DNA of 64,000 nt from NCBI GenBank assembly GCA_038227875.1, contig JBBRPR010000041.1:13811-77810 (forward strand), given 5' to 3'. Made by a program: the position numbers and the translations under genes. The first letter of the stretch is position 1, and every line of letters starts with the position of its first letter. The notes under the pieces are model-generated. The model was not told where the DNA came from. It did no database searches and was given only the letters and a program-made list of their open reading frames with translations. Positions 13,844-50,505 of this stretch are shown piece by piece. Origin of the DNA: Planctomycetota bacterium. Its GTDB lineage: Bacteria > Planctomycetota > SZUA-567 > H5-PLA8.

Positions 13844-16012
13844 ATGCAGATCGTTTACTGTGATACTTGCGGCTTGCGCATCCCTGACAAAGAGTTCGAA
13901 TCCGGTCGAGCAGTTAAGACGGGTGAACGAAATTTTTGTGAAAAGTGCGCGAAGAGGGCGGATGCCGGTCATCCCGCATTGGTGGGCGCACCTCCACCTG
14001 CCGCCAGGCCCTCCGCCGCGAACCTGACGCCGGCGCAGCGCTACGGCATCAATCACGCCGATATTACCGCTCGCGAGGCACGCACACTTCAAGGGCAGGG
14101 ACCTGGCGAAAAGCAGGCACAGAAGAACCTGCCGATGCTTCCGATTGCCGCTGGTGTCGGCGCCGTGGCAGTCCTGATCGCGGCGTTCGCTCTGAGCGGA
14201 AAAGGACCCAAGCCGAACACGACTAAGACGTCCGCGGACGACCAGGCGGCCAACATCGCTCCCGCGGGAGCACAGGTTGCCGACGAACATCGTGTCGCCG
14301 AACATTCGATTGCGCCCAAACCGGAACGGGACGCAGCGCCGGAAATTCCCGTTGTCGCCGGGCCCAACCCCGAGAAACTCGCCGACGAAGCGCTCAGTAA
14401 GGTGTTGAAATTCGAAGGACTTGCCGCCGAAGATCGGGCCGGTCGCATTAAAGCGTTGGACGGCTATATCGCGCTTCACGGAAACACGATGGTCTCCATG
14501 CGCGCGTTTCAAATGCTCAAGACGTTGCGCGCCGATGCCGATCGCGAGGAGCGGGAAGCAGCCCTCGCGGCTCAGATGCCCAATTCCGTGCTCACCGGCG
14601 GCGGCGGGGCGGGGCCCGGCGACGTGAGTGTCCCGGAAGCGCAGCGTCAACCTGGTGCGACGAAAGCGGAGGGCAAAGCCCTCAATTCGCCCCGGGAACA
14701 ACCCTTGGTTCCCGTGGCCGCCAAAAATGACAAACCGATTGCCGTTAAACCGGCGCCGGCCAGGAGCGCGGACGGCAAAGCCGTCGAGGACAAGCCGGCG
14801 TTCAAAAAAGTTGACGTGGAAGCAGAGAGTCCGCAAAAAATCGCCGAGCGCGTGGCGTTCGAGGCGGTGCGCAAGGAACTTGCGCCGGTGTTGCAGCAGC
14901 AGCGCTTTGGCGCGGCGCTGGAATTGCTGGACCGCAAACTGAACGACACGGCGATGGCGGATGTTAAGGATCGTCTGGAAGCAGAACGGACGGACGTCGC
15001 CGCCGTGATCCAGTTGCGCCAGCGCGCGCTGGATGCGCTTCACGAACTGGCCGGGAAGAAGATCACGCTCAAGCGCGGCAAGTCCGAACTCAGCGGCACA
15101 GTCATCGTCGATTCAGCCAAGCCGGGCATTGCCTTGAAGACCGACAGCGGCATGGAAATGGCATTCCTGCCGGAGCAACTCCAGGTGCAGGACATCGACG
15201 CTTTTGCACCGGCGAAAACCGGTGCGGAGCGCGGCAGCGACCTGCGCGAGCGCGGTCTGCTCTTTCTCGACATCAACGACTTGAATAAAGCTCAGGAGTT
15301 TTTCAAAGCGGCGCAGGAGGCCGGCGCGGACGTTTCCAAAGAACTCGCGCGCGTGACGGCCGCTGAGGACGAAGATCAGGAAGTTCGTGCGAAGCAGGAG
15401 TGGGCCAATGCGGAGTCCGCCTACGCACTGAAACGTTACGAGGCGGCGCAGAAGGCGTATCAGAACTTCAAAGCGACCTATGCGAAGACGCGTCTTTTTG
15501 CGCAGCTCGAAGTCCAATTGAAGCAGCGTCTCGATTCGATTGAGTTTTCGCTTCATCCACTGCAGGAAGGGTTGCACGGCGCGTTTTACAAGGGCAAGGA
15601 TTTCCGCGACGAAGACTTTCTGGCCGAACGCATCGACGGCAAAATCGAATTCAACTGGGACAGGCAAGCGCCCGGTCCCAACGTGCCGCGTGAACATTTT
15701 TGCGCGCGCTGGACGGGCGTGTTAAAGATCCTGGTCTCCGGCCGCTATACGATTTCGACCGTCGTCGACGACAACGCGCGCTTGACGATCGATGGCAAGC
15801 AACTGATCAACGATTGGGTCGAACAACATGCGGCGAAACAAATCAGCGGCACGATTGATCTCAATGAGGGTTATCACGATATCCGATTGGATTATTCGCA
15901 GGGATCGGGATTGGCGTCGCTGAAACTTCTATGGCGCCGGGAAGGAACCTCCGAAACCGTGGTTCCGCCTGAAGCGCTCTGGCACCGGACCACTCGACCG
16001 AACGACAAATAG
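13844..16012 (+). CDS. C4 zinc-finger single-pass membrane protein with C-terminal PA14 domain
   Basis: MQIVYCDTC-x22-CEKC, Pro/Ala linker, TM IAAGVGAVAVLIAAFAL, TPR-like helices, PA14 signature (RIDGKIEFNW..P....F.ARW.G...DD.ARL.IDGK.LI.DW...H). Confidence 0.75.
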   Translation: MQIVYCDTCGLRIPDKEFESGRAVKTGERNFCEKCAKRADAGHPALVGAPPPAARPSAANLTPAQRYGINHADITAREARTLQGQGPGEKQAQKNLPMLPIAAGVGAVAVLIAAFALSGKGPKPNTTKTSADDQAANIAPAGAQVADEHRVAEHSIAPKPERDAAPEIPVVAGPNPEKLADEALSKVLKFEGLAAEDRAGRIKALDGYIALHGNTMVSMRAFQMLKTLRADADREEREAALAAQMPNSVLTGGGGAGPGDVSVPEAQRQPGATKAEGKALNSPREQPLVPVAAKNDKPIAVKPAPARSADGKAVEDKPAFKKVDVEAESPQKIAERVAFEAVRKELAPVLQQQRFGAALELLDRKLNDTAMADVKDRLEAERTDVAAVIQLRQRALDALHELAGKKITLKRGKSELSGTVIVDSAKPGIALKTDSGMEMAFLPEQLQVQDIDAFAPAKTGAERGSDLRERGLLFLDINDLNKAQEFFKAAQEAGADVSKELARVTAAEDEDQEVRAKQEWANAESAYALKRYEAAQKAYQNFKATYAKTRLFAQLEVQLKQRLDSIEFSLHPLQEGLHGAFYKGKDFRDEDFLAERIDGKIEFNWDRQAPGPNVPREHFCARWTGVLKILVSGRYTISTVVDDNARLTIDGKQLINDWVEQHAAKQISGTIDLNEGYHDIRLDYSQGSGLASLKLLWRREGTSETVVPPEALWHRTTRPNDK

Positions 16013-16023
16013 CGCGGACACCC

Positions 16024-18348
16024 ATGCAGATCATCTATTGCGAAACGTGCGGCCACCGCATTCCTCAAGAAGACATCGACGCTGGCCGCATCGTCAGCGA
16101 TGAGTTCAAACACTACTGCCAGAATTGCATTCCGCGCGCCGAACCGCAGCGGCCCGCGGGCCGCTCCAGCCGCAAGATTGTATTGATTACACCGGCGCCG
16201 GCACCGGTTGCGCCGACCCCGCCGGCCCCGCCGTCCGGACCGGCGGAACGCAAGCCGTCGATGCCGCACCTGACGCCGTCGGCACGCCACACCAGCCACC
16301 CAATTTCGGCCGCGCACCCGATGCCCATGTTGCCCATCGCCCTCGGCATTGGCCTGCTGGTGATTGTGGCGCTGGCGGTATTTTCACTGGGATCAACACC
16401 CACGATAAAGAAGCCAGAGAGCGCCAGCGTCTCCGGGCCGGTCACAGCCCCCGCTCCGGCTACATGGCCCGAAAGCGCGAACGCGCGTAATCCCCGCAGC
16501 AACACCAGCACCGCGGCGAACTCCCATGTTGGCGGAACCGATGGCAAATATCCGCCCGATCCGGGGAAGTCTGATCCGCAAAAAGTCGCCGACGATGCGC
16601 TGACCGAAGTGCTGCATTGGGACGGTGTTCCGGAGAGCGATACTGCCGGACGCATCAAGCGGCTGGAGGAATTCGTGGCGCGCTTCAGCGACAGCAATGC
16701 CGCGGCGCGCGCGCAGTTGCTGCTGGTCAAATTGCACGCGGCTCCCACCACAACGGCGACGGAAGTAGCGTCGGCCGAAATCCCTCCGTCCGGTCCGGCC
16801 ACACCCGCAGCTCCGACTGGTGAACCGATTCCTCCGGCACCTCAGCCCGCGGCGCCCGCTGCAAAAACACCCGTGGCGGAGAAAGCGCCGGTTGACGATA
16901 CGCCCGCTGAAGTCAAGCCAGCTGACGGCGGCAAGCCCGCCGGGTCCGTGCCCGTGACCGTGGTTGCGGCGGTGCCCGAAGCCAATCCGGAACGCGAAGC
17001 CGTCGCGCTGCGGGATTGGGCCTCAGTGGTGCGACTGGCCGACGCGCGGAGTTTCAAGGTGCTGGACGATGCGCTGAACACTTTCACCAAGACCTATGTC
17101 GGCGCAAAGTTTCTTGAAGAGCACAGCGCGGAGATCCGGGCGGTGAGCGATTTCACCAAAGCGGCCACCACGGTCGATACCGGCATGGCCGGTTGGTGGA
17201 AATTCGATGAAGGCAACGGCAGCAAAACCGCCGATGCGTCCGGCAACAACAATGCCGGTGTGCTGAACGGCAAGCCGGTCTGGGGGCACGGAAAATACGG
17301 CAATGCCATCGGCTTCAATGGACAGACAGACTTTGTCAACATTCCCAATTCACCCTCGGTCGAACGCGTTCAGGAAGGCGAATACACCCTCTCCGCCTGG
17401 GTCAAACCTGAAGACCTGCCCAACGGAAAGGACAACAATTCACAGACCTACACGGTAGTGGCCAAGGCCGGTTTTCATTCCGGATTGTTTTACGAACGGC
17501 ACGGGAACTTCCTTGGCATTCATATGCTCGGTGAGAACGGGCAGTACGCCGTTTCGTTTCACGCGTACGCCCCCAAGGTCATGCATCACGTGGCCACGAC
17601 CGTGAGCCGCAGCGGCGGGGTGGAGCGGCTCTACGTGGACGGTATACTCGACGGCATTGCCCTGTGGAATGCCGCGGAGGGGCCGCGCGACTACGGTCAG
17701 GAAACGTGGAAGATCGGCATGGCTCAACCGGGGAACAAGGTCTACGGCTACCCCTTTAAAGGGGTAATCGATGATGTCCGGATCTACAACCGCGTCCTGT
17801 CGCCGGCGGAAATTGCGGTACTGGCGGAGATTCCGTTCAAAAAGTTTGCCCCACCGGAAATCCCCGGCACGGCCAAGTTCATCGGCATCGACGAAAACAC
17901 CCGCGGGAATTGGAAGGGCGTATATGGGAGCAACGGCTACCTGATTCCGTACGACAGCGATAACGCTCCAGCCTACGCCCAGATTATCGTAACGGGCGAA
18001 TCATCGTACTTGTGGGGCAATACGAAAGACCCTCGCGGGCTCCTGCATTCCATGGAACCGGACCGAGTGGCGGGCTGTTGGTTCTCCTATTCGGCGTTTA
18101 CCGTGGACGTCAATCTTACCGACGGGCGTATACACCGCATTGCGCTGTATTGTATCGATTGGGATGCCAAAGACCGCGCGGGAAAAGTGGATGTCATGGA
18201 CCTCGCCGGCAACGTGCTCGATTCCCGCGACATCGCCGACTACACCAAAGGCAAGTACATGACCTGGGACGTCAAAGGCCACGTGAAATTTGTCTGCCGT
18301 GCGACGAAAGCCAACTTCATCCTGAGCGGCGTGTTCTTCAATCAGTAA
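16024..18348 (+). CDS. C4 zinc-finger single-pass membrane protein with LamG-like domain plus terminal beta domain
   Basis: MQIIYCETC-x22-CQNC, TM IALGIGLLVIVALAVF, LamG/concanavalin (WKFDEG.G....D.SG...F.GVIDDVRIYNR.LS), extra C-terminal domain (D..T.G.W.GVYG..GY). Confidence 0.75.
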   Translation: MQIIYCETCGHRIPQEDIDAGRIVSDEFKHYCQNCIPRAEPQRPAGRSSRKIVLITPAPAPVAPTPPAPPSGPAERKPSMPHLTPSARHTSHPISAAHPMPMLPIALGIGLLVIVALAVFSLGSTPTIKKPESASVSGPVTAPAPATWPESANARNPRSNTSTAANSHVGGTDGKYPPDPGKSDPQKVADDALTEVLHWDGVPESDTAGRIKRLEEFVARFSDSNAAARAQLLLVKLHAAPTTTATEVASAEIPPSGPATPAAPTGEPIPPAPQPAAPAAKTPVAEKAPVDDTPAEVKPADGGKPAGSVPVTVVAAVPEANPEREAVALRDWASVVRLADARSFKVLDDALNTFTKTYVGAKFLEEHSAEIRAVSDFTKAATTVDTGMAGWWKFDEGNGSKTADASGNNNAGVLNGKPVWGHGKYGNAIGFNGQTDFVNIPNSPSVERVQEGEYTLSAWVKPEDLPNGKDNNSQTYTVVAKAGFHSGLFYERHGNFLGIHMLGENGQYAVSFHAYAPKVMHHVATTVSRSGGVERLYVDGILDGIALWNAAEGPRDYGQETWKIGMAQPGNKVYGYPFKGVIDDVRIYNRVLSPAEIAVLAEIPFKKFAPPEIPGTAKFIGIDENTRGNWKGVYGSNGYLIPYDSDNAPAYAQIIVTGESSYLWGNTKDPRGLLHSMEPDRVAGCWFSYSAFTVDVNLTDGRIHRIALYCIDWDAKDRAGKVDVMDLAGNVLDSRDIADYTKGKYMTWDVKGHVKFVCRATKANFILSGVFFNQ

Positions 18349-18465: not shown

Positions 18466-19416
18466 ATGGGTGCCAATACGCTCGAAGCGCCGCAGGTGAA
18501 ACTGGAAGCGGGTAAAATCGCGCACGGTGTGCCGATTGAAGTTCCCAAGCCGGCGTCGAAAGCCCAGGTCAAATCGTTCGTCGACGATGGTTTTCTGGCC
18601 GTGGAAAACCTGGTCTCCCCAGCCGAACTTGAAGAGCTCAAGGCCGACACGTTCAAGCTCGCGCGCGGCGGCTATCCCTGCGAAAGTCTCAAACCGCTGC
18701 CGGCCGACATGAGCGATGCGGACGCGCTGGCCAAGATTCTATGCATCCACCAGCCGCACTACATCAGCCCGGTGATGAAGAAGTTCGCGATGCACGCGAA
18801 AATCTGCGGCGTGCTGAGCCAGATTACGGCCGCGCACCTGCCGCATTGGGACGGCAGCGTGAAATGCATGCAGACCATGCTCTTTGTCAAGCCGCCCCAG
18901 TTCCAGGGCCAGGCGTGGCATCAGGATGAAATCTACATTCCGACCCGCGATCGCTCGCTGATCGGCGCGTGGATCGCGATGGACGATGCCACACTCGAAA
19001 ACGGCTGCCTGTGGGTGGTCCCCGGTTCGCATCGCATGGGCTACCTCTATCCCCAGCGCGCGCACAACCGCAACGAAGAGTTCGACTTCGCGCCGGAAAG
19101 TTACGGCTTCGACGAGAACCAGCAGGTACCCGTCGTGGTCAAGGCCGGCACGGTGGTCTTCTTCAACGGCTACCTGCTCCACCGCAGCTTCAAAAACAAG
19201 ACCACCGACAGCTACCGCCGCGTGCTGGTGAGCCACTACATGAACTCCTGGTCGCATCTGCCGTGGGACATCCGCGAAGGCGAACGTTCTGCGACCGCCG
19301 ACCGTCGCGCGATCATTCCTGTCTCCGGCATCGACCCGTACGCGTGGAAAGGCTACGAAGACGGCGGGAAGAACGTGTGGCTGCGGACCTGCGCCGCAAA
19401 CGCAGAGAAGAAGTGA
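18466..19416 (+). CDS. PhyH-family Fe(II)/2-oxoglutarate dioxygenase
   Basis: WHQD, WIAMDDATLENGCLWVVPGSH, LLHRS..N.....RR. Confidence 0.9.
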   Translation: MGANTLEAPQVKLEAGKIAHGVPIEVPKPASKAQVKSFVDDGFLAVENLVSPAELEELKADTFKLARGGYPCESLKPLPADMSDADALAKILCIHQPHYISPVMKKFAMHAKICGVLSQITAAHLPHWDGSVKCMQTMLFVKPPQFQGQAWHQDEIYIPTRDRSLIGAWIAMDDATLENGCLWVVPGSHRMGYLYPQRAHNRNEEFDFAPESYGFDENQQVPVVVKAGTVVFFNGYLLHRSFKNKTTDSYRRVLVSHYMNSWSHLPWDIREGERSATADRRAIIPVSGIDPYAWKGYEDGGKNVWLRTCAANAEKK

Positions 19417-19576
19417 TTAACTGCATTGCGGATTTCGGATTGCGGATTGCGGATTAGTAGAGCGCGCAACACCGAGAGCCCAGTTGGTCCTTCCAATTGA
19501 AAACGCACGGGTTTAAAGCCCGTGCGTTTTCCATTCCAATCCGCAATCCGAAATCCGCAATCCGCAATGCTGTTAA
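19417..19576. repeat. Inverted GATTGCG heptamer arrays enclosing a hairpin
   Basis: 39-bp arms 19417-19455 and 19538-19576 are near-perfect reverse complements, each ending in TTAA; internal hairpin aaaacgcacggg/cccgtgcgtttt at about 19500-19530. Confidence 0.85.
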
Positions 19577-20328
19577 TGCGTTCCGTGCGAGCGTCCTCCA
19601 TACCTTGCATTCGGCGCCTCTAAAATCTCCGCCTGCCGCTTCGTTAAGTCGCTGAATTTCTTCGCGTCATAATACTGCGCGTGCCAGGAGATCGACTGCG
19701 GGCTGTATTTGTAGAATAGCGTCCGGCGTTCCCGGCTGCCGCGCCACGGAATCGTGCCGTGAGTGAGCGCTTCGGTGAAGATGATCGCTGTTCCCGCGGG
19801 ACCCGGGACTGCGCGTACGCATTCGGCCGGCGTGTTCAACGAATGCCAATCTTCCGGCAGCGGATAATTGGATTTGTGACTGCCGGGCACGCAGCCGAAG
19901 CCGCCGTCTCCGGGATTGACGTCGTGGAGATTGTAGGCGACGACCAGCAGGCCATTGTACATCCGTCCGTCGTGATGATTGAAGAACATGCACGAATCGA
20001 ACGGCGTCCCGCCGCCGTGCAAGCCACTGGCGGCCACGTTCGTGCCGCTGCGAATCACGTCGCAATAGTCATGATCGAGTCGGAAGCCCTGCCCGATCAG
20101 TTCGTCGAGGTACGGTGAAATGCGTGGGTTGTCGATCAATTCCCGATACGCTTTATCCCAGGCCAGCAGCGACTCTTCGAAGCGGTGCATTTTCGCCTCG
20201 GGCTTGGCATGCTCTGCAAGCTGGCCGTCGAGCACCCGGTTGAGCTCCTTCAATTGCCCTGCGCTCAGCGCATTCGGCACCGTGATGTAGCCCTGAAGAT
20301 CGAACAGATACTTTTCCTTCTCAGTCAT
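19573..20328 (-). CDS. PhyH-family Fe/2OG oxygenase with HxG motif
   Basis: EKYLFDLQGY, LHGG in place of HxD, GGFGCVPGSHK, FTEALTHG...W....ERR; AGGAG upstream of ATG 20328. Confidence 0.85.
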   Translation of the reverse strand: MTEKEKYLFDLQGYITVPNALSAGQLKELNRVLDGQLAEHAKPEAKMHRFEESLLAWDKAYRELIDNPRISPYLDELIGQGFRLDHDYCDVIRSGTNVAASGLHGGGTPFDSCMFFNHHDGRMYNGLLVVAYNLHDVNPGDGGFGCVPGSHKSNYPLPEDWHSLNTPAECVRAVPGPAGTAIIFTEALTHGTIPWRGSRERRTLFYKYSPQSISWHAQYYDAKKFSDLTKRQAEILEAPNARYGGRSHGTH

Positions 20329-20464
20329 TGGTTTGGCTCCTGGCCTGGCTCTTAGCTCTTGGGATTCCGAATCGCTCATGCCAAGCGCCCTCTGCGCTCG
20401 ACATGAGGCACGATTAAACCTACCATTTGTAAGTCTCAGGTTCCTGCAAAGGGCATACAGAATC

Positions 20465-21325
20465 TTGCAAAACAGCGCGCTTCCGGACATCGAAGTCGGC
20501 TTGGTGGAAGGGAGCCTGCACGCGTACGCCAATCCGCCCTGGGTATGGTCGGGGCCGTGGTCGTGGGAGACATGGGTGGTCGATTGGATCGCCTGGGACC
20601 GCAGCCTGCTGGCCACCTCTACCGACGGCGTGAATTTTACGCAGCACGCGCGGCCGCAATGGTCGTGGTACATTTTTCAACCGCATTGCGCTTACAAACA
20701 CCTGGAGCAGGAGGCACACACCAGCGCCGAAAGTCTCTGGTTCTTCTTCAAGGTGAAGCGCAAGTTTCCGCCGCTGACCAGCCGCCCGTTCAGTGTCTGT
20801 GTCGATCCGGAAGAACGACTCTGCGGGCACGTCCGCGCCATGTACGCGCTGCAGCAGAGCGGCGATCCCGGAGCGAGGCTGATCATCCAGTCACACGCGC
20901 TGACATTCCTGACGGAGATGCTTTCCGCCGCGCAGCGGGGAGGGGCAGGGACTCCAGAAAACCCGTGGCGCATCCGCAATCCGCTCGACCGCGGCAACGC
21001 CGACGCCTCGTTGCTCAACCGCGTCGACGCCGCCGTGATGCGCCGGATCGCCGCGCCGCCGGCGATCGACGAACTGGCTGAAGCGCTGGCGATGTCCGTC
21101 TCGTCGCTCGCCCACCGCTTCAAAGCAGAAACCGGCACGACGGTGATGGAACGCGTGCGCTGGCTGCGCATCCGCGAAGCGCGCGCACTGCTGACCAAGC
21201 CCGGCGCGTCGGTGAAAGGTGTGGCGCGCAAACTCGCGTTCAGCAGCCCGTTCCATCTCTCGAAACTGTTCCACGAACACACCGGGATGACCGCGGACGC
21301 ATACATCAAACGCCATCAGCGCTGA
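20465..21325 (+). CDS. AraC-family transcriptional regulator
   Basis: C-terminal LAEALAMSVSSLAHRFK..TG...RI.EAR.LL......VA.KL.FSS.FH.SK.F....G; start uncertain (TTG 20465 chosen to avoid the divergent gene's start region). Confidence 0.85.
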   Translation: MQNSALPDIEVGLVEGSLHAYANPPWVWSGPWSWETWVVDWIAWDRSLLATSTDGVNFTQHARPQWSWYIFQPHCAYKHLEQEAHTSAESLWFFFKVKRKFPPLTSRPFSVCVDPEERLCGHVRAMYALQQSGDPGARLIIQSHALTFLTEMLSAAQRGGAGTPENPWRIRNPLDRGNADASLLNRVDAAVMRRIAAPPAIDELAEALAMSVSSLAHRFKAETGTTVMERVRWLRIREARALLTKPGASVKGVARKLAFSSPFHLSKLFHEHTGMTADAYIKRHQR

Positions 21326-21659: not shown

Positions 21660-22373
21660 ATGCAAAAATTGCAGAAGATATCAGTTGTCACCATCACTCC
21701 CCGCAGCCCTCGAATCGAGACTCCACCCTCTCGCTACAGTTTTTCAGACTCGAACATCTTCGGCGTAGTGGGTGCGATCTTCGCCGTGACAGCGATCGCA
21801 TTACTGATTCTCCGCAAACATGCCGCCACCTACACCGAGGCCAAATCGTTACAGGTCGCGTGTATTTTTGCCTTTCTGGTCGCGGTTGTGACGGGGATGT
21901 GGTCTTCGTTGAAATTTGCCAATGTCGTGCTCCGCAAGCGCGCAGAGGAACGGGGGAACAGTATGAGCTGGGATATCTACATCGTAAAGTTTTCAAAGCC
22001 TTATGCCACGGTTAAGGAAATTCCAGACGAGGAGCGTTCGGAACTGGGTACGCGAGTGGCCGTTCAGAAGGCACTTTCCGAAATATTTCCGACCATCAAG
22101 TGGAGAGACGACGGTTGGGGAAGTTGTGATCACGAATACGGTTTTATCGATTTTAACGTTGGCAATGACGACCCTGTTGACAGCATGATGTTGCTCGTTC
22201 GCGCAGCCAGTGCTGATGTTGTGCCGGATATCGTGCAGCTCTGCATGAAGAATGGATGGCAGGGAATCGACACAAGCACGAGCGACGGCGGGTTTATCGA
22301 AAGGGCGCAGGATCCGGCAGCGGGACTGAAGAGGTGGAGCGACTATCGGGATCAGGTTATCGAAAAGTTTTGA
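21660..22373 (+). CDS. Hypothetical protein (2 TM N-terminal part; soluble part may start at 21963 MSWDIY)
   Basis: Open frame with two hydrophobic segments; internal ATG preceded by GGGGA. Confidence 0.55.
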   Translation: MQKLQKISVVTITPRSPRIETPPSRYSFSDSNIFGVVGAIFAVTAIALLILRKHAATYTEAKSLQVACIFAFLVAVVTGMWSSLKFANVVLRKRAEERGNSMSWDIYIVKFSKPYATVKEIPDEERSELGTRVAVQKALSEIFPTIKWRDDGWGSCDHEYGFIDFNVGNDDPVDSMMLLVRAASADVVPDIVQLCMKNGWQGIDTSTSDGGFIERAQDPAAGLKRWSDYRDQVIEKF

Positions 22374-22386
22374 TACGAAAGGCGCG

Positions 22387-22692
22387 GTGATAATGCAGAC
22401 GCCTCAGAATTTTGAAAAAGCCAAAAAGAGGTCTTATGACACGTACCTTGCCGCTCAGGCTCAATATGACGCGGAACAACGCCCAAGGCGTGAGCGGCGC
22501 AAAAAGGACTCCATCGTATTCGCAGGCACGGGTCTTGGCTTTCTAGCGGTCGGGGCCTTACTCCAATTTTTGAACGGCTATGTCGTGTACCGCGGAGCAG
22601 GTTTTAGCCCGATAGAGGTGATGAGTGTTTTCATGTTGGTGGCTTCATCGGTGTTATTCCTGTGGGCCGCCTTGAAATTTGTGCGAAGTTGA
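22387..22692 (+). CDS. Small membrane hypothetical protein
   Basis: Two hydrophobic segments, tight spacing with neighbours. Confidence 0.55.
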   Translation: MIMQTPQNFEKAKKRSYDTYLAAQAQYDAEQRPRRERRKKDSIVFAGTGLGFLAVGALLQFLNGYVVYRGAGFSPIEVMSVFMLVASSVLFLWAALKFVRS

Positions 22693-22701
22693 CTTAAGGC
22701 C

Positions 22702-22977: not shown

Positions 22978-23089
22978 CGCACTGGCATTTCCCGCCCGTT
23001 CCGCATACTATTTCCACCTACAGATTCCGCGCTACCAGGGCCCCAAGGATGAGGGTACAGACGCGGACCCATATTGGAGAGGAGCGCAC

Positions 23090-24637: not shown

Positions 24638-24740
24638 TTTTCTAGTGCCACGGATGCACAGACGCTTGAGCGTAGCTAAAGCGTCTGTTCATCCGTGCCT
24701 GCGCGTTTCTACTTTTCAAATACCGTACTGAAAGAATCCC

Positions 24741-25715: not shown

Positions 25716-25752
25716 TCTAATTGGTGCGACGCGATTCGGTCACGCATGTCCA

Positions 25753-26931: not shown

Positions 26932-26952
26932 CGTACGGCTCCCAACACTTTC

Positions 26953-33359: not shown

Positions 33360-34760
33360 ATGGAACTGTACTTCTGCGACCAGTGCGAGAAGCGGATTCC
33401 AACGGCCGACGTCGCCGAGGCGAAGGCCGCTGCCGCGTCGTTTAACGACCATATGTACTGCGTCGAGTGCCGTCCTCGTCCCGTCGCCCCCAAACCGGCG
33501 ACCGCGACTTTTAAAGCACAGCCCAAATCCACCCTGCGCATGCAACGCACCACTCCAGCGCGGGACGCGCCGCTCGTTCCGCACAAGTCGCCGATTCGTG
33601 GCGCGGAAACCATGCCGACGGCCACGCCGATCAACCCCACGCCTCCGCCGATGCCGGCCGTTCGCGCGGGGACTTCGGGGTATCGCTCGCCCTCCGTGCA
33701 GGTTGCGCCGCCGCATCGAATGTCGGCATCAGCCTCGGCTTCGGCAGCTCGCGCGGTTGAAGTTCCCGCGCGGCGACCGAGCAGCAAGACGCCGCTGATC
33801 GTGGGCGTTGCGATTTTTGCCGTTTGCTTGATCGCCGGTACCGCGCTGTTCTTCACCCAATCCGACAAGACGTCGCGCGTCGCCGCCGTTGAGACGGAAC
33901 CAAAGAAAACAACCGCACCTACACCTGCATCTACGGGTCCGATGACGACCACAAACACGCCGAAAACCGACGAACCCAAGCCCGCGCCGATTGTGCTGCA
34001 TGGCTCGCCTTCCATGCCCGCCAACCCGATCGCCAAGCGCAACACGCCTCCCGTTGAAAAACCCAAACCTGTCCCACCACCGAAGAAGGAATTGGTTCCG
34101 CCCGCGCCGGTTCTGGGCGTGGCCGAAGCCGGCGTCTCGGAACTGGGAGTCGAAGCATTAAAAGGGGACGCGCCGAAAATCGACGGACTTCTGGACGACG
34201 CCGCCTGGCGCAGCGCGGCGACATCCGATGCGATGAAGCTCGAAAATGGCGACACGCCCAACGGCAAGGCCAAGTTCTGGATGACGTACGACGAGACGAA
34301 TCTTTACGTGGCCGTCCAGTGCTTTGAAAACGCGACGGCGCTGAGCTCGCTTAAGGCCGAAGCCACGCAGACGGCATCGGACAACATCTGGATGGACGAC
34401 TCCGTCGAACTATTCATCGATCGGGTGAATTCACGGCATGCGTATTATCAGCTCATTTTTAACCCCAAGGGCGTCGTCTGGTCGAAGTACTACGACGGCC
34501 CCAAGCACGCCGTTGGTAACTGGGAGCCGACGGTCAGCGTCGCGGCGAATGTCGGTAAGATGAGCTGGACCGTTGAAGCCGCGATTCCATTAAGTTCGTT
34601 CAAGCAAAGTTTGAAAACCACGAGCGAATGGTCGTTCAACATTGCGCATACCCGCACGGCTGCGAACGAATTGATGTACTGGAGTCCGGTGCACTCGGAT
34701 TCGTCGCATCATCCGGAACGGTTTGGAAAGCTGACGGGAATGAAGGAAAGACAGTTTTGA
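33360..34760 (+). CDS. C4 zinc-finger single-pass membrane protein with CBM9-like domain
   Basis: MELYFCDQC-x24-CVEC, Pro-rich linker, TM LIVGVAIFAVCLIAGTALFF, CBM9/DOMON-like (P.IDG.LDD..W, YD..NLYVA..C, DDSVELFID, W.VE.AIP). Confidence 0.75.
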   Translation: MELYFCDQCEKRIPTADVAEAKAAAASFNDHMYCVECRPRPVAPKPATATFKAQPKSTLRMQRTTPARDAPLVPHKSPIRGAETMPTATPINPTPPPMPAVRAGTSGYRSPSVQVAPPHRMSASASASAARAVEVPARRPSSKTPLIVGVAIFAVCLIAGTALFFTQSDKTSRVAAVETEPKKTTAPTPASTGPMTTTNTPKTDEPKPAPIVLHGSPSMPANPIAKRNTPPVEKPKPVPPPKKELVPPAPVLGVAEAGVSELGVEALKGDAPKIDGLLDDAAWRSAATSDAMKLENGDTPNGKAKFWMTYDETNLYVAVQCFENATALSSLKAEATQTASDNIWMDDSVELFIDRVNSRHAYYQLIFNPKGVVWSKYYDGPKHAVGNWEPTVSVAANVGKMSWTVEAAIPLSSFKQSLKTTSEWSFNIAHTRTAANELMYWSPVHSDSSHHPERFGKLTGMKERQF

Positions 34761-41991: not shown

Positions 41992-42108
41992 GAGTGGCAC
42001 GAAGTCTATGTTTAGTAGCACGAGCGAATCAGACGTCGTTGTTTTGGTGGAAGTTCAGTCGCCTGCGGTCTCTGGCATCAGCTGCGATTGCTGGGTAGCA
42101 TCTTTTGT

Positions 42109-43623
42109 ATGAGTGATCCGAATTTTCATTGGGAGCCCTTGGCGCCTGGAGCGGTGGGCGAACTGTTTCAGGGATTGAACATCCGCTGGTGGATTGCGGG
42201 CGGGTGGGCGATTGATCTGTTTCTGGGCCGACAGACGCGCGTTCATGGCGATATCGATGTGCTAATATTACGCCGCGATCAGCTTGCACTCCAAGAACAT
42301 CTGCGGGGATGGGAACTGTGGGCGGCCCATCCGCCGGGAACGCTGGTGCCATGGACCCACGGCGAAATACTTCCTAAAGAAGCGCACGACATCTGGTGCC
42401 GGAAGTCGTCCGATGCGCCCTGGTGTCTGCAAATTATGATCGCTGATACTGATGCAAATCAGGACGTTGAGCACTGGCTGTTTCGACGCGACCCGCGGAT
42501 TTCACGGCCGCTTGATATGCTGGGTGGGCGCACCCCGGACGGTCTTTCATTTCTGTGCCCTGAAGTGCAGTTGCTCTTTAAGGCGAAGAACCCGCGGGAC
42601 AAGGATGAATCCGATTTCGCGGCCGCGCTGCCCCACATGAGCCTCGACGCGTGCCAGTGGCTGGCGTGGGGGCTGGCCATGACGCGGCCGCCTGGATGTG
42701 GGTGGGAAGAGTTGGTTCGTGAGAGCATCGAGAAAAAGGGCGCAAAGAAGAGAGCCGAAATTTGCAACACAATGGCGCGCGCCGCCTTCCATGGGGAAAA
42801 TTCCCTTCTCCAACGCTTGATCCATGAAGTAGGCGTTGAGCTGAATGAGCGAATACCGTTATGCACGCCAGAACTGGAAGCGGACTTCATACTTCAAGAA
42901 GCAAATCTGGGCTATGTGACGGCGACGTTCTTGATCCTGGCCATCTATGGAAAACAAATCGATACCGTCAGGCTGTTGTTGGAAGCGGGATGTGATCCCG
43001 ACGCCACCCGTGCGGAAGATGAGAAGGCAGCGTTGCACGTCGCTGCCGCGGTGGGATCCGATGACATGGTCAAGTTGCTGCTGGACGCGGGCGCGGCCGT
43101 GGACATGCCCGAGGGCAACGGGGCGTTGCCTCTGGCCTCCGCGTGTTTCTACGGACATCTCAAAAGTATAAATCTTTTGATCGCGGCAAAATCTCCGTTG
43201 CAGCGAAAGTCCAAAGCGGATTCTTCCCCACCACTGAATGCTGCCGTCTCGGGAAATCAGCTCGCTGTTGCCAAATTTCTATTGGAATCCGGCGCCGATC
43301 CCAACGTTCGTTCGGATCAGGGTGTCACGCCGCTGATGCTTGCGGCGCAGAAGCGGCAGTTGGAAATGGTAGAGTTACTGCTGGCGTACAAAGCCAATCC
43401 GAATCTGGTCAGCAGACGAGAACGAGATACCGCGCTTATTGTGTCGAGTTATGGCATGCCTCCCGTGCTTGAAATTGTGGAGGCATTGTTGAATTCGGGA
43501 GCGGACCCGGACATCCAAGATTCAAGAAACAAAACCGCCGTCGACTGGGCAAGGGAGTGGCACAACGAGCAGGTCGTTGAGCTGATTGAAAGGTACCGGA
43601 GGCGGAGAGGCACGCGAGACTGA
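42109..43623 (+). CDS. ANT(2'')/Lnu-like nucleotidyltransferase fused to ankyrin repeats
   Basis: WWIAGGWAIDLFLG.QTR.H.DIDV, PEVQLLFKAK..R.KD..DF; then about 6 ankyrin repeats (ALHVAAA.G...VKLLL.AGA, TPLMLAA). Confidence 0.8.
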   Translation: MSDPNFHWEPLAPGAVGELFQGLNIRWWIAGGWAIDLFLGRQTRVHGDIDVLILRRDQLALQEHLRGWELWAAHPPGTLVPWTHGEILPKEAHDIWCRKSSDAPWCLQIMIADTDANQDVEHWLFRRDPRISRPLDMLGGRTPDGLSFLCPEVQLLFKAKNPRDKDESDFAAALPHMSLDACQWLAWGLAMTRPPGCGWEELVRESIEKKGAKKRAEICNTMARAAFHGENSLLQRLIHEVGVELNERIPLCTPELEADFILQEANLGYVTATFLILAIYGKQIDTVRLLLEAGCDPDATRAEDEKAALHVAAAVGSDDMVKLLLDAGAAVDMPEGNGALPLASACFYGHLKSINLLIAAKSPLQRKSKADSSPPLNAAVSGNQLAVAKFLLESGADPNVRSDQGVTPLMLAAQKRQLEMVELLLAYKANPNLVSRRERDTALIVSSYGMPPVLEIVEALLNSGADPDIQDSRNKTAVDWAREWHNEQVVELIERYRRRRGTRD

Positions 43624-44916: not shown

Positions 44917-44930
44917 GAGATTTTGCTTCA

Positions 44931-45740: not shown

Positions 45741-48098
45741 TTACTCGCGCTTGCCGGCGAGGTGTTGGATTTCCGGTTCGGTCAGCACGCGTTCGTAGAG
45801 GCGGAAGTCGTCGAGCAGGCCTTTGAAGAAGAACCACTTTCCGTTGGTCGACGGCCAGTACTGCGTCTGGCCGGTGCCGAGTTGGTTGCGCGCCATGCCC
45901 CAGCCGTCGATGTTGCCGGTATAGCTGTTGACTCGCGCGCCGTCGAGGAAGACGTTCTCGCGGTCCTGTTTGCCTTCCTTCTGAACCGTGATCACGACGT
46001 GGTGCCACTTGCCGTCGTTGACCGGCGTGTCCCAGGCGGGCATCACCGTGGCTTTGACGATGTGAAAGCAGGCATAGAGCTTGCCGTCGTGGCCGACGTA
46101 GATGGTGTTGACGTGGCGCTTGGTGTTGGGGTCGCCGACGGGGACGTCCTGCTGGCCGAGGATGACGCCTTCGGACGTGGTGTTGAACCAGATGGCCACG
46201 CTCAGGATGGGGTGCGGGCGGAAAAGTTCATCGGGCAGCGTGACGATTTGATTGGTGCCGTTGAGGCTGATGGCGCTGTTCATTTTTCCCGGGACGAGCT
46301 GCGGGCCGTTGACGGCGGTGCCGGCACGGTTCTGTCCGGAGGAGTCGGGGAGCGTCGCGGCCTGCAGGTCGTCGAATTTCAGGCGCAGCAGCAGGCCCTT
46401 GGTGTCGGGTTCCCATTGGAGCGATTCCAGGTCGTTGATTTCCGCAGCGTGAAGCGTGACGAAGGCGGTTTCACCAAAGGCGGCGCGGAAGCTGGTCATG
46501 GCGGATTTGACCTGCGGCGCGCGCCGGGAATCGAAATCGACCCCGAGCTTGGCGACGTCTTTGAACGCGGCTTCGGCGGCGTGTTCGTGGAAATCGGCTT
46601 CCGCGTCGGTCAGGAGTTGCTTCAAGCAGACGAGGTCTTCTGCGGTCGCGCTGCTGTTCTGTTTGGTGACCGCCGCGGCGTCCAATTTGTGGTCGGGTGC
46701 GGACAGTGCGTCGGCGAAGGCCTGGACGACGCGGCCGTGCGGGCTGTCGCCAAGGCCCAGAGAAGCCAATTGCGAGCGGGTGCTGTCGGGCAGCGACGAG
46801 AGCGGAACGGTGAGGGTCAGGCCTTTGCTGTTGACGAAGATTTCGTTGTCCTTGAGATCGGTGAATTTGAATTCGGCCGACTTGCCCACGTGGATCGGCG
46901 CGCCGTGGGCGACGGGGAGCGTGAAGTCGGCGACGTCCTTGAGATTGGCGGCGCCCTTGGGCACGGCGCCATCGATTTCGTTGAGCCAGTCGAGGACCGG
47001 TTTGACGCTGGCCAGTTCGGTTTTTTTCGAGGCTAGCGCGTCGTTGACTTCCGCCTGGGCCAGCAGGGACTTGGCCTTCTCGGCGTCGTGCGCGCGCAAG
47101 GCGGTCTGAAAATCGGCTTGGAAGGCGGTGTAGGCTTTCAAGGTATTGAGCGCGGCGATGCGCGCGACTTCGGCCGGGTCCGGCGGCGGCGGAACGGGAG
47201 CGGCGGTCTTGGTTGTGGTGGCCGGCGGTTTGGGCGGAGAAGGTTTCACGTAAATAGTCTTGGGCGGAGGCGGAGTCGTATTCGCCTGTGCGGCCGGAGC
47301 GGGCGCCGGGGTGGCGGGCGTCGCGGGGGTGGCAACGGTCGACGGCGTCGATGGAGCGGGCGCAGTCGTGGCCGATTTCTTCAGGTCCGCGACCATCTTG
47401 CGCGCGCGGGCGGCGGCGATGCTGTTGCTGTTGGCGGCGATGAACTGTTCCAGCGCGGCGCCCTGGTCGTCCTTGTTCATGGCGTTGAGTTTGTTGCGCA
47501 GTACTTCGAAGGCATCGTTGGCCTGTTGATCGGGATCGGATTTGGCGCTCTGCGGATTGAAGGCGCTGTGCGCGGTGGATTCCGAAATAGCCGGCGTCGC
47601 CACGGGCGTGGGCGCCGGAGTGGACGGAGCGGCGGCGGTGTGTTCCGGGGTGCTTGCCGGCGAGCTGCTGAGCAGGATGATGGCTGAGATCACCAACGCG
47701 GCGATGCCACCGGCGATCATGGGCAGCAGCGGCATCGACTGAGGTCGCGGCGGAGCTGTTTCGGGTTTGCGGTCGGAGGACGGTTTTTGCGGGATCAGCA
47801 GCATGCGCGAACTGCGGTTGGAACCCGCGCCTGTGGCGACGGGGAGCACCGGCATGGACGGCGTGGTGGCGTGCGCAGGGTCGAGCTGATTGCGCTTGCT
47901 GTCTTTGACGACGGCCTTCATGCCGGTGCCGGAGGACTTGGCGGTCGGGCCTTGAATGGCTTCGATCTGTGTGGTGACAATGCCGATGGAACAGGATTTA
48001 CAGTAGACACCCTTGGCCTGCTTGTCGGCGGCTTGACCGGAATCGAAGTCGGCTTCGGTGAGCCGTTTTCCGCATTTTTCGCAGAACCAGAATTTCAT
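45741..48098 (-). CDS. C4 zinc-finger single-pass membrane protein with C-terminal LamG-like domain
   Basis: MKFWFCEKC-x23-CKSC, TM IAGGIAALVISAIILL, helical modules, LamG (VNDGKWHHV, F.G.LDDFRLY.R.L). Confidence 0.75.
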   Translation of the reverse strand: MKFWFCEKCGKRLTEADFDSGQAADKQAKGVYCKSCSIGIVTTQIEAIQGPTAKSSGTGMKAVVKDSKRNQLDPAHATTPSMPVLPVATGAGSNRSSRMLLIPQKPSSDRKPETAPPRPQSMPLLPMIAGGIAALVISAIILLSSSPASTPEHTAAAPSTPAPTPVATPAISESTAHSAFNPQSAKSDPDQQANDAFEVLRNKLNAMNKDDQGAALEQFIAANSNSIAAARARKMVADLKKSATTAPAPSTPSTVATPATPATPAPAPAAQANTTPPPPKTIYVKPSPPKPPATTTKTAAPVPPPPDPAEVARIAALNTLKAYTAFQADFQTALRAHDAEKAKSLLAQAEVNDALASKKTELASVKPVLDWLNEIDGAVPKGAANLKDVADFTLPVAHGAPIHVGKSAEFKFTDLKDNEIFVNSKGLTLTVPLSSLPDSTRSQLASLGLGDSPHGRVVQAFADALSAPDHKLDAAAVTKQNSSATAEDLVCLKQLLTDAEADFHEHAAEAAFKDVAKLGVDFDSRRAPQVKSAMTSFRAAFGETAFVTLHAAEINDLESLQWEPDTKGLLLRLKFDDLQAATLPDSSGQNRAGTAVNGPQLVPGKMNSAISLNGTNQIVTLPDELFRPHPILSVAIWFNTTSEGVILGQQDVPVGDPNTKRHVNTIYVGHDGKLYACFHIVKATVMPAWDTPVNDGKWHHVVITVQKEGKQDRENVFLDGARVNSYTGNIDGWGMARNQLGTGQTQYWPSTNGKWFFFKGLLDDFRLYERVLTEPEIQHLAGKRE

Positions 48099-48204: not shown

Positions 48205-50505
48205 TCACTTTTCTTTTCCGGCGAGGAGACGAATTTCGGATTCGGAGAGCGGATGGTCGTACACCCGGAATTCCGAGAGCTCCCCTTTGTAAAACATATT
48301 CACGCGCGCCGCGGCCGGCCAATGCGCGCCGTACCCCGCACCAAGCTGGCTGATGCTCATCGTCAGATAATCCAGCTTGGCGTTGACCCGGTAGACTTCC
48401 GCGCCGTCCAGAAAGACCGTCTGCAGATCGTCTTTGACGTTCAACGCCGCATGATGCCATTTATCGTCGTTGACGGGAGCCGGGGATTCCGGGGTGTCGG
48501 TGTTGCCCTGCCACAACCTTCCGCGCAGTTTGCCGTCTCCGCCGATGTAGAGAATCGGCGAGTACTGTGAGGGCTGAATGGTTAACGGGGTGTCTTGATT
48601 TTCGAGCAGGGCTCCGTCGGCGCTGGTTTTGAACCAGAGGCTGACGCAGAGCGCGGTCCGCTGGTAGAAAAGTTTTTCGGGCAACTGCACAAACTGGTCG
48701 ACGCCGTTGAACGCCAGGGCGCGCGTGAAGCTGTTGCGGCCAGGCAGGCGCGACGGACCGTTGACCAGCGTCGCGGCGTTCTTTTGCCCGGAATCGTCGC
48801 CTGCGGTGGCGCCGCTGGCCTCGGTGAAATTCAGGAAGATGAGCAGGCCTTGGTAGGGCAGGGCAAGACGTGCGTCGAGGATTGTGAGCTCCGCCGCGTT
48901 TTTCTGCGCAACCAGGGTCGCACCGTGGGCTGCTTTGAACGACTGCAGCGCATTGCGTTGTTCTTCGAAATTCTTCAGTTCACCGAATTTCACAATGGAG
49001 GCCCACGCCGTCGCGGCGGCGCGTTCGTGGTGGACGAATTCGGCGTCGCTGAGCGCCTGCTGGAAACAAGCGAGATCTTCGGGGGAGGCGGATTCGCCCT
49101 TTGAAGTTTTCTGTTCCTTCTGCAGCGTGGCGTGAGCGGCGGTGGCGGCGGCTTCGAATTTTTTATCGCCGGCGATGAGGAGTTCTCCGAAGGCGCGGAC
49201 GAGGCGCGCGTGGGAACTCTCACCCAGCCCGAGACTGGAGAGCTTCACGCGGCTCTCGTCGGGCAGGCCGGCCAGCGGCACGGGCAAGGTCAGACCCTGA
49301 TTGGTGAAGTAGAGCACGCTCTCCTTGATTTCGGCCAGCTTGAACGGCGCGTTGCGGCCGATGCGCAGCGGATCGCCGTGCGCCATCGCCAGCGTCACAG
49401 CCTCGACGTCCTTCAGGCGCGCGGCGCCTTGGAGGAGCGCACCGTCGAGTTCCTTCAGCCACGCGGCGGTGGGATGAAGCGCCGCGAGTTGAGGTTGGTG
49501 CTCGGCGAGCTTCGGTTCTTTCTCCGCCTGTGCTAGGAGCGTGGTGACGGTGTCGATCTGACGGTTGGCGAGCGCCGACTGAAAATCAAACCGGAACGCG
49601 GTCCACGCGGCCAGCGCGTCGTCGGTTTTGGGGGCTGGCGGAGCGGGGCTTGATTCCGGCGGCGCAGCGTCGGGAATTTTTGCGGGTTCGGCGGCCGCGA
49701 CTGCCGGTGCTGGCGGCACGGTAGGCGCGGGGCTTGCGATGGGCGGCGGTGATTTGAGATCAGAGAGCATGCGGCGTGCGCGCGCGGAGACGATATTTTC
49801 CGGATACTGTTTCAGAAAATCTTCGAGTGCCGCGGTCTGGGCCGCTTTGTCGAGAGACGCGACGGTGCGATTGAGCGTATCGAAGGCGGCGTTGGCGTCC
49901 TTCTCCGGGTCGGGGCGGTTGACGTTGAGCGGATCTGGACTGGGCGCACTCGATTCAACGGGTGTGTGGGGCCTCGACGAGGCAACAGATCGAGGGGGCG
50001 CGGGTGCAACAGGTTCGGAGCGCACTTTTTCCACTTCGGCTTTGGGGGGCTTGGCGCCGCTGAACATGATTACACCGATGCCGAGAATGACGAACAGCGC
50101 GGACGCGCCAACGGCGAAGAGCGCATTATTGTTCGTCGCTTTCGGCGGTGGTGAAAGCCGTCCACTGACCTGCAAGGGAAGTGGTGTCGCGGCACCGAAG
50201 CTGCTTTGGGACGCTGACGTGGACTTGGCGGGCGTGTGCGAAGCGCTCGACGCGCGCGTGATCTTTGGGCGCGAACCGTGGGTGGTGGGCGGCGGCGCGG
50301 CGCTTTCGGTGGTGGGAATGGCGGACGCGGAGGCTTTCGCGCGCGCCAGTTGTTGATCGGTGATCGCGTCGATTTGTCCGGTGACGACGCCGACGGAACA
50401 GGACTTGCAGTAAACGCCCTTGGCCTGCTTGTCGGCGGCGAGACCGGCGGTGACGTCCGCGTCGGTGATTCGCTTGCCGCATTTTTCGCAGAACCAGAAT
50501 TTCAT
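48205..50505 (-). CDS. C4 zinc-finger single-pass membrane protein with C-terminal LamG-like domain (tandem paralog)
   Basis: MKFWFCEKC-x23-CKSC, TM LFAVGASALFVILGIGVIMF, LamG (VNDDKWHH, Y.G.L.EFRVY...LS). Confidence 0.75.
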   Translation of the reverse strand: MKFWFCEKCGKRITDADVTAGLAADKQAKGVYCKSCSVGVVTGQIDAITDQQLARAKASASAIPTTESAAPPPTTHGSRPKITRASSASHTPAKSTSASQSSFGAATPLPLQVSGRLSPPPKATNNNALFAVGASALFVILGIGVIMFSGAKPPKAEVEKVRSEPVAPAPPRSVASSRPHTPVESSAPSPDPLNVNRPDPEKDANAAFDTLNRTVASLDKAAQTAALEDFLKQYPENIVSARARRMLSDLKSPPPIASPAPTVPPAPAVAAAEPAKIPDAAPPESSPAPPAPKTDDALAAWTAFRFDFQSALANRQIDTVTTLLAQAEKEPKLAEHQPQLAALHPTAAWLKELDGALLQGAARLKDVEAVTLAMAHGDPLRIGRNAPFKLAEIKESVLYFTNQGLTLPVPLAGLPDESRVKLSSLGLGESSHARLVRAFGELLIAGDKKFEAAATAAHATLQKEQKTSKGESASPEDLACFQQALSDAEFVHHERAAATAWASIVKFGELKNFEEQRNALQSFKAAHGATLVAQKNAAELTILDARLALPYQGLLIFLNFTEASGATAGDDSGQKNAATLVNGPSRLPGRNSFTRALAFNGVDQFVQLPEKLFYQRTALCVSLWFKTSADGALLENQDTPLTIQPSQYSPILYIGGDGKLRGRLWQGNTDTPESPAPVNDDKWHHAALNVKDDLQTVFLDGAEVYRVNAKLDYLTMSISQLGAGYGAHWPAAARVNMFYKGELSEFRVYDHPLSESEIRLLAGKEK

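Follow-up and report, generated by a model that had tools for sequence, protein, structure and literature searches.

The described systems closest to the proteins examined here are ZitP, GltJ and RsgI. ZitP, a bitopic regulator of polarity and pili in Caulobacter crescentus, starts with a zinc ribbon (ZnR, residues 1–37; C5, C8, C28 and C31) of beta-beta-alpha-beta-beta order, which its authors assigned to Zn_ribbon_5 and which docks on PopZ via W35 and a basic patch; a transmembrane (TM) helix at residues 106–127 and a C-terminal domain follow (PMC5182065). GltJ (AgmX), from the gliding motility system of Myxococcus xanthus, carries a ZnR at residues 1–42, also with C5, C8, C28 and C31, followed by a flexible linker of 95 residues, with a membrane span located farther along (PMC11135422). 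The ZnR works as a switch: it binds the linker of the same protein and, once freed by MglA-GTP, recruits MglB; the authors mention that planctomycetes have ZnR-bearing receptor-like proteins, and propose outside-in signaling (PMC11135422). The RsgI proteins of Clostridium thermocellum are anti-sigma-I polysaccharide sensors with variable PA14 or carbohydrate-binding module (CBM) heads (PMC6852018, PMC10328401, PMC12203970). Here we analyze five genes, designated A to E, from a 64,000 nt stretch of a Planctomycetota bacterium (the window; positions 13,811–77,810 of contig JBBRPR010000041.1, contig C41 of assembly GCA_038227875.1), which code for bitopic proteins that combine an N-terminal putative zinc finger with diverse C-terminal domains.

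The five genes are paralogs from a lineage-specific expansion in an uncultured family of Planctomycetota. Simple scripts were used to call genes and to predict TM helices, the latter by a Kyte-Doolittle scan. As had been proposed in the original prediction for this window, the five coding sequences are open frames from their predicted starts, and their translations begin with a four-Cys finger of pattern M-x3-[YF]-C-x2-C-x2-R, in which Cys6-x2-Cys9 is separated from the second CxxC by 22, 22, 24, 23 and 23 residues in A, B, C, D and E, respectively. M1, C6, C9, R12 and the second Cys pair do not vary among the five. Residues 1–20 are polar, with no hydrophobic stretch of signal-peptide type, and each protein contains a single hydrophobic 19-mer, located around residues 99–165. 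The finger splits cleanly into two subtypes, type I in A, B and C and type II in D and E, and the C-terminal domains anticipated by the original prediction (PA14; LamG plus an additional region; CBM9; LamG; LamG) were all recovered by Pfam, with E-values of 1e-15 to 1e-25. The predicted arrangement in two tandem pairs was likewise borne out, with 12 nt between A and B and 106 nt between E and D.

Gene A (13844..16012, + strand, 722 aa) codes for a type I zinc ribbon (residues 1–41, 13844..13966; C6, C9, C32 and C35), a linker, the TM helix, a three-helix module, a long helical region and a PA14 domain (residues 574–710, 15563..15973; E 3.3e-25). An in-frame TTG also exists upstream, at 13760, and the start at 13844 is favored because the family consensus places Met five residues before the first Cys. 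Gene B (16024..18348, +, 774 aa) contains a type I zinc ribbon (residues 1–41, 16024..16146), a Pro-rich linker, the TM helix, the three-helix module, a Laminin_G_3 domain (residues 433–598, 17320..17817; E 3.6e-21) and about 175 unassigned C-terminal residues. The product of gene C (33360..34760, +, 466 aa) comprises a type I zinc ribbon with the 24-residue spacer (residues 1–43, 33360..33488), a 103-aa linker, the TM helix, a Pro-rich linker and a CBM9_1 domain (residues 274–459, 34179..34736; E 1.3e-17), and lacks the three-helix module. Genes D (45741..48098, − strand, 785 aa) and E (48205..50505, −, 766 aa), whose products are 40 % identical across 483 aa, both specify a type II zinc ribbon (residues 1–51; 47946..48098 in D and 50353..50505 in E), a linker, Ser/Thr-rich in E, the TM helix, the three-helix module, a helical mid-domain and a Laminin_G_3 domain (in D residues 613–778, 45765..46262, E 6.7e-15; in E residues 601–758, 48232..48705, E 2e-15). 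In E, the predicted TM helix spans residues 129–147 (50065..50121, −), the juxtamembrane three-helix module residues 197–253 (49747..49917, −), and a probably periplasmic, helical TPR-like domain with an SH3/Sm-like beta insert residues 294–549 approximately (48859..49626, −).

Further copies occur throughout the genome, as had been anticipated. A family hidden Markov model (HMM) was built from the five 42-residue N-termini and used to search every stop-to-stop frame of 60 residues or more in the six-frame translation of the source assembly (9.34 Mb, 176 contigs, 59.6 % GC, 88 % complete), retrieving 33 open reading frames (ORFs) at E < 1e-3, 28 of them beyond A–E; E-values were 1e-19 to 1e-22 for A–E and 1e-8 to 1e-21 for most of the others. 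Exactly one TM helix is predicted after the finger in 31 of the 33, beginning 47–103 residues past the last finger (23 residues in one member), and the other two have no TM helix. Another member lies within 10 kb in 8 of the 33 cases. The type I set comprises A, B, C and 22 more segments (mean column identity 41 %), and the type II set D, E and 13 more, with a mean column identity of 73 % over 51 residues; several proteins, 8–9 according to the domain table, contain a type I finger followed in tandem by one of type II. One member (L023:6001–6123, +, contig C3 of the same genome), a protein with PA14 and CBM_4_9 domains, has C-A-Q-H-H in place of C-x2-C in its second zinc knuckle, possibly a Cys3His variant of the finger.

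Since the genomes of relatives are incomplete, and were sampled, the counts that follow refer to those samples. The type I profile matches 19 of 21 related genomes, a count that takes in one genome with a single match (G013); among the 19 are all 12 genomes from the same family as the window genome, with 2–28 matches each. In an even sample of the phylum it matches 33 of 121 genomes, mostly as a single copy outside the window's family; two of these loci (L094 and L095) again specify an N-terminal finger and one TM helix, and a third (L096) contains no ORF of at least 150 aa. Type II is found in 3 of the 121 sampled genomes, all from the window's own family-level lineage. Searched against a representative library of 1.84 billion proteins, the type II profile identifies 374 protein clusters at E ≤ 1e-3, 329 of them at E ≤ 1e-10, and in the best 150 of the 374 clusters the type II finger is nearly always at residue 1, or is a second finger at around residues 60–120. 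A scan of GTDB species genomes yielded 32 strong loci, all from Planctomycetota and from seven metagenome-assembled genomes (MAGs), plus five weak partial matches elsewhere. In the source annotations, relatives carry generic or erroneous names ("RpoP", "helix-turn-helix domain-containing"); one relative annotated as a helix-turn-helix domain-containing protein (P0009) shows no such domain by sequence reading or in an NCBIfam scan.

The finger is the most constrained segment of these proteins, the remainder aligning at 22–40 % identity or not at all, which fits a common binding partner. The type II consensus is MKFYFCETCGKRITD.QIL.G.GRDKKLKGVYC..CAVGV.TMEFDAI; besides the four Cys, residues F5, K11, R12, G21, K26, K29, G30 and T42 are invariant in the 15 paralogs, and the type II finger retains a basic cluster (K11, R12, K26 and K29) and an aromatic residue ahead of the first Cys. 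An AlphaFold2 (AF2) model of the type II finger, as in E, from a 42-sequence alignment (predicted local distance difference test, pLDDT, 85.4) predicts a beta-beta-alpha-beta-beta order, with strands at residues 3–5 and 12–14, a helix at 15–19 and strands at 23–25 and 31–33, the four Cys being located at two hairpin turns.

At the sequence level, the finger appears to fall outside every described family: no curated Pfam or NCBIfam model, Zn_ribbon_5, Zn_ribbon_4 and GltJ included, claims that of A–E, and neither the PDB sequence searches nor three structural searches revealed a significant relative. Pfam identified nothing above threshold over the finger of A–E, and Pfam and NCBIfam at E ≤ 1 returned sub-threshold noise alone (zf_UBZ, Zn_ribbon_2, DUF7479 and MqsA). 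When the profiles of the two finger subtypes were run against PDB sequences at E ≤ 10, neither ZitP nor GltJ came up. The best matches were all taken as non-homologous or unproven: eS26 (E 0.007), sharing one CxxC knuckle, TraR (E 0.022), and the C2H2 finger of Miz-1 (6.6e-4), aligned over "CE.CGKR" alone. Zn_ribbon_5 (PF13719) and Zn_ribbon_4 (PF13717) had no match in A–E at E ≤ 1, and genome-wide each gave two sub-threshold matches (contigs C46/C35 and C78/C47, respectively), none of them among the 33 members; the positive control for this search matched in Caulobacter. The GltJ equivalog model NF033761, whose cut-off is 450 bits, reached 13 bits with C (E 0.039), in an alignment confined to the Pro-rich region. 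Additionally, no match in A–E was found for zf-HC2 (PF13490), the H-x3-C-x2-C anti-sigma zinc motif, in a series of scans that did detect the zf-HC2 protein encoded at 5976–7946. The sole curated model with any signal was Zn_ribbon_2 (PF12674, "putative zinc ribbon domain"), which matched 6 of 75 long relatives at E ≤ 1e-4 (best 2.2e-7), one of them, P0006, with 27.6 bits, above the 22.5 cut-off; in the window it gave 14 bits (E 0.085) for D, below that cut-off, and no match for A, B, C and E, and genome-wide it gave one sub-threshold match. The model itself is uncharacterized and carries no functional information. With respect to structure predictions, all scores from the ESM Atlas with residues 1–60 were ≤ 0.81 and were considered leads only.

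Beyond the finger, the proteins are modular. Between finger and TM helix there are disordered, Ser/Thr/Pro-rich linkers of 50–100 residues that are net basic (K+R 0.09–0.25 vs. D+E 0–0.14 of residues). Among the C-terminal domains of the 33 members, Pfam recognized Laminin_G_3 in seven, PA14 in two (one also with CBM_4_9), FGE-sulfatase in two, TPR in two, and CBM9, NPCBM and 3-keto-disaccharide hydrolase/DUF1080 in one each, with none recognized in 17; among the 75 long relatives, the tally was FGE-sulfatase 13, Laminin_G_3 nine, PA14 six, NPCBM four, CBM96 two and LVIVD two. Often, the variable end is a glycan-binding beta-sandwich (LamG, PA14, CBM9, NPCBM, CBM4_9 or DUF1080) or resembles FGE-sulfatase. 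The constant finger with swappable C-terminal domains put forward in the original prediction thus holds across the family. Its designation as a carbohydrate-sensing system exceeds the data, since only some 12 of the 33 members have a recognizable glycan-binding domain, and to choose signaling over anchoring or localization likewise goes beyond the data. Comparison of the paralogs by BLAST revealed common internal modules that had been overlooked. The first, a 58-residue module situated directly past the TM helix, is found in 13 of 32 paralogs, including A, B, D and E and excluding C. In an AF2 model of residues 185–600 of E (21-sequence alignment, mean pLDDT 82.4), this module is predicted to be a three-helix bundle, followed by a disordered Pro-rich stretch and by a helical domain with an inserted small barrel of five strands, which is also present in D. 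Searches with this model gave generic results: the best Foldseek E-value was 0.19, and the best VIA match (Z 7.2) corresponded to single TPR-like hairpins, the small barrel giving an Hfq/SH3-like match. The mid-domain of E has relatives in 10 of the 21 related genomes.

The resemblance to ZitP includes a ZnR at the extreme N-terminus, separated by a long linker from a single TM helix, a C-terminal domain outside the cytoplasm, similar Cys positions (C5/C8/C28/C31 in ZitP; C6/C9/C32–34/C35–37 here) and the same beta-beta-alpha-beta-beta order, solved for ZitP and predicted by AF2 here. The original prediction that the finger matches neither ZitP nor MJ0042 fingers stood at the sequence level, and did not at that of layout and predicted order of secondary structure elements, which are the same as in ZitP and GltJ. 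Differences from ZitP are the spacer (19 residues vs. 22–24 here) and the absence from A–E of Zn_ribbon_5 or Zn_ribbon_4 matches and, by Pfam, of DUF3426; also, ZitP is single-copy, whereas the family described here has dozens of paralogs with swappable heads. DUF2497, which we take to be the domain of PopZ, had no match in this 88 % complete genome, with a control that matched in Caulobacter. GltJ likewise proceeds from an N-terminal ZnR through a flexible linker and a TM helix to a periplasmic region; unlike in GltJ, none of A–E or of the 28 other members has GYF or GYF_2, and there is no glt/agl context at the family loci. The genome has two GYF_2 matches on contig C9, outside the family, and two Roadblock/LC7 genes on contig C17. 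As in RsgI, paralogs combine a constant N-terminal module and a single TM helix with a conserved juxtamembrane domain and with CBM or PA14 heads that vary from one protein to another. Here, however, the N-terminal module is a zinc ribbon, and A–E had no match at E ≤ 1 to RsgI_N, presumably the Pfam name of the anti-sigma-I domain. Moreover, none of A–E shares an operon with a cognate sigma gene, their neighbors being genes for SelB, PhyH, LpxB and a TonB-dependent receptor, and the host is a diderm planctomycete, so that the heads would be periplasmic instead of at the cell surface.

Bitopic proteins that carry a ZnR docking module at their N-terminus are already known from ZitP and GltJ, as is, from the RsgI reports cited above, the constant inner module with swappable CBM heads. 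New are the finger family itself, with its two subtypes and their use in tandem, the very large number of paralogs it has reached in one planctomycete lineage, and the combination of the finger with LamG, PA14, CBM and FGE-sulfatase heads and with new periplasmic modules. No description of a finger-TM-LamG/PA14 family was found in the literature searched, although figures S3 and S4 of PMC11135422, on planctomycete ZnR-GYF architectures, may depict related proteins.

We tentatively favor, at a little under an even chance, that the family members are bitopic binders of periplasmic ligands whose finger docks on one or more shared cytoplasmic partners. The proteins, which open with a C4 zinc ribbon of 40–50 residues, of type I, type II or both, would span the inner membrane once in an N-in/C-out topology, with the variable head in the periplasm, where it would bind a glycan or other ligand. 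The constant finger and linker would in turn dock on one or a few common partners, probably not encoded beside the family genes, so that binding outside could be coupled to localization, clustering or a signal inside, in the manner described for ZitP (docking on PopZ) and GltJ (the linker/MglB switch). The architecture itself was observed directly; the signaling role is our inference. The N-in/C-out orientation is suggested by the lack of a signal peptide, by the usually extracytoplasmic types of the heads and by the existence of the same Cys4 finger in a soluble FHA-domain protein, which places the finger in the cytoplasm; together with the single TM helix, it would leave finger and head on opposite sides of the membrane, as originally proposed. 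That FHA protein (L026:6004–7056, −, contig C1 of the same genome) has a type I finger at residues ~193–232 and orthologs in three Planctomycetota MAGs (L036:2418–3650, L043:2354–3592 and L044:2439–3653). The FHA-finger gene is adjoined by a gene for an Rce1-like CAAX protease and, in the three MAGs, the pair lies 2.4 kb upstream of a gene for a type II member, a hint that the finger may be connected with phospho-threonine signaling. None of the three outcomes that would have spoken against the original prediction (a characterized family with this finger, architecture and function; finger and lectin on the same side; no further conserved members) was found when checked.

Several results weigh against this reading. 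Zinc binding is presumed from the four Cys, and the orientation in the membrane is likewise deduced from sequence features: the number of K/R in the 15 residues on either side of the TM helix (74 vs. 69) is uninformative on topology. In addition, 17 of the 33 members have no recognizable C-terminal domain and two no TM helix. The analogy with ZitP and GltJ is one of layout and predicted secondary structure, given that no sequence-model or fold-search match accompanies it: sequence models of the ZitP and GltJ families did not match the finger, and their chains were absent from the Foldseek and VIA match lists obtained with the finger model, for which the best results were a generic zinc-knuckle match in the PDB with Foldseek (E 0.3), Z 3.0 in a wide VIA search, and a PHD-like domain (Z 4.2) with VIA on the 560 chains from Foldseek. 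Finally, no candidate partner gene emerged from the genomic context. Genes were called in 58 member loci by a simple rule based on GC content at third codon positions, and the 550 non-member neighbors were clustered, and Pfam was run on the 105 flanking genes of 26 loci from the window's own genome; in neither set does any gene recur at most loci. The commonest neighbors code for sugar-type GntR/LacI regulators, AraC regulators, extracytoplasmic function (ECF) sigma factors and FHA proteins. Compared with 500 random placements, there was no enrichment near the 33 members of ECF sigma genes within 6 kb (five members vs. 5.8 expected) or of GntR/LacI regulators (4 vs. 3.6), and the FHA proteins (2 vs. 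0.7) were not considered enriched. The expanded family proposed in the original prediction is real, and genes for a partner, be it a kinase, a sigma factor or another protein, were found to be neither conserved nor enriched beside its members.

This lack of a conserved or enriched regulator or kinase gene also speaks for what we regard as a possible, if doubtful, alternative, namely that these are periplasmic capture or envelope-tether proteins devoid of a signaling role. An anchor would hold the LamG, PA14 and CBM heads and TPR-like scaffolds, retaining imported polysaccharide or organizing envelope or surface structures, and the finger would do no more than aid folding or oligomerization or place the anchor. 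The proteins have long, modular periplasmic portions, and a TPR-like scaffold with a small beta-barrel is typical of protein-protein scaffolding; also, some members adjoin glycoside hydrolase-like, heparinase, type II/IV secretion ATPase, PilM or pseudopilin-like genes. A pure anchor, however, has no need of a finger, whereas in these proteins conservation is highest in the type II finger, which is at the exact N-terminus in nearly all of the best 150 of the 374 clusters and sometimes has a type I finger beside it. Its conservation, fixed N-terminal position and doubling argue for a specific cytoplasmic interaction.

An RsgI-like regulated proteolysis, whereby an outside ligand triggers cleavage in or near the TM helix and the released finger and linker free, or become, a transcription regulator, appears unlikely. 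The layout is that of the clostridial RsgI sensors, to the extent that these are described in the reports cited, in A, B and D the TM helix opens with a stretch containing helix-breaking Pro/Gly residues ("MLPIA.G", "LLPMIAGG"), and the genome contains about 128 ECF-like sigma genes. Nevertheless, A–E have no match to RsgI_N or zf-HC2, a zinc ribbon of 40 residues is not among the known anti-sigma domains, the vicinity of the 33 members is not enriched in ECF genes, and no sigma gene adjoins A–E, as originally predicted. The nearest one to A is an ECF gene (5350–5979) with a zf-HC2 anti-sigma gene (5976–7946), some 5.9 kb and four genes away.

Somewhat less probable still is a membrane-tethered nucleic-acid binder with the one-component logic of ToxR or CadC, in which a basic zinc ribbon, carried on the long flexible linker, would directly contact DNA, RNA, or the transcription or translation machinery. 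The conserved basic residues (K11, R12, K26 and K29; "GRDKKLKG") would suit such a role; type I is weakly profile-similar to the C4 fingers of TraR/DksA (E 0.022 and 0.081), the finger model superposes on the N-terminal zinc-binding module of eL24/Rlp24 with a root-mean-square deviation of 1.9 Å over 36 residues, but with Z 2.4–2.8, and annotation pipelines gave relatives the names mentioned above. All these similarities are below significance, the relative named for a helix-turn-helix has none, and ribbons this small bind proteins just as often, judging from what is reported of ZitP and GltJ. That there is no family at all, and the CxxC…CxxC motif starts unrelated membrane proteins incidentally, has a negligible probability: short Cys motifs are common, and the type I column identity is low, but the HMM E-values, the constant position of the finger at residue 1 with conserved non-Cys residues, the 329 database clusters at E ≤ 1e-10, and the common juxtamembrane and mid-domains as further signs of shared descent, all oppose it.

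A bolder extension of the docking model, which we consider rather improbable as a whole, is that the finger is a lineage-specific cytoplasmic "address tag" through which dozens of periplasmic receptors plug into one hub, types I and II perhaps addressing two hubs and the tandem proteins both. The hub might, with similar reserve, be a scaffold, a small-GTPase module, a kinase/FHA network or the transcription machinery. Such a system would serve bacteria reported to take whole polysaccharides into the periplasm and, if real, would represent a one-hub, many-receptor system for transmembrane signaling or positioning not described so far. Planctomycetota have very many unexplained membrane and "LamG/PA14 domain" proteins, and the sensing and handling of polymers in their periplasm are little understood. 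The N-terminal zinc ribbon in its two subtypes, with the disordered basic linker, one TM helix and, often, the 58-residue three-helix module, is a concrete, searchable unit that brings many of these proteins together, and the 50-residue finger is an experimentally tractable handle, usable as bait. If the finger docks on a single hub, planctomycetes would possess, in this family, their own version of the ZnR switches of ZitP/GltJ type, multiplied across many receptors; if it does not, it still provides a useful annotation for several hundred clusters of "hypothetical" proteins.

Among the genes in the vicinity of family members, those for PhyH-like dioxygenases lie within 6 kb of 6 of the 33 (2.6 expected; 3.6 % of the 500 placements reach 6), a weak signal because A and B share one PhyH gene. 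The PhyH-like genes concerned are located at 18466–19416 (+) and 19573–20673 (−) in the window, and at L015:5146–5865, L003:11258–12097 and L023:12885–13691. An FHA protein is encoded directly upstream of the member at locus L024, and a weak, double-finger member (L021:6004–7509, −, contig C2) is 2.7 kb from a gene whose product has a prepilin-type N-terminus (L021:10265–11233, −). In the zf-HC2 anti-sigma protein of the ECF pair at 5350–7946 (+), the extracytoplasmic part resembles the C-terminal domain of squalene-hopene cyclases (terpenoid cyclase/prenyltransferase-like); a paralogous ECF/zf-HC2 pair (L010:8416–10925, −) adjoins another family member. A gene for a TonB-dependent receptor (50763–52820, −) lies 257 nt upstream of E and is read in the same direction, receptor, E and D forming a co-directional row.

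The other genes of the window are ordinary chromosomal genes, such as those for SelB, LexA, UbiD, LpxB and PhyH dioxygenases. Between B and C (21660–29178), three small ORFs of 237, 101 and 91 aa, without Pfam matches, are followed by genes for a radical SAM enzyme and a dihaem-type cytochrome c, with HlyD, a MacB/FtsX permease and a second radical SAM enzyme encoded on the opposite strand; this region looks like a peptide-modification and export cluster. A gene at 42088–43623 (+) codes for a 511-aa protein with an aminoglycoside-2''-adenylyltransferase-like N-terminus (residues 23–72, E 1e-10) and a long array of ankyrin repeats. Towards the end of the window, a gene for a 1306-aa protein with TPR, DUF3857, transglutaminase-core and DUF3858 domains (55837–59757, +) is followed by one for a tyrosine-type recombinase of the phage integrase family (60031–61416, +).

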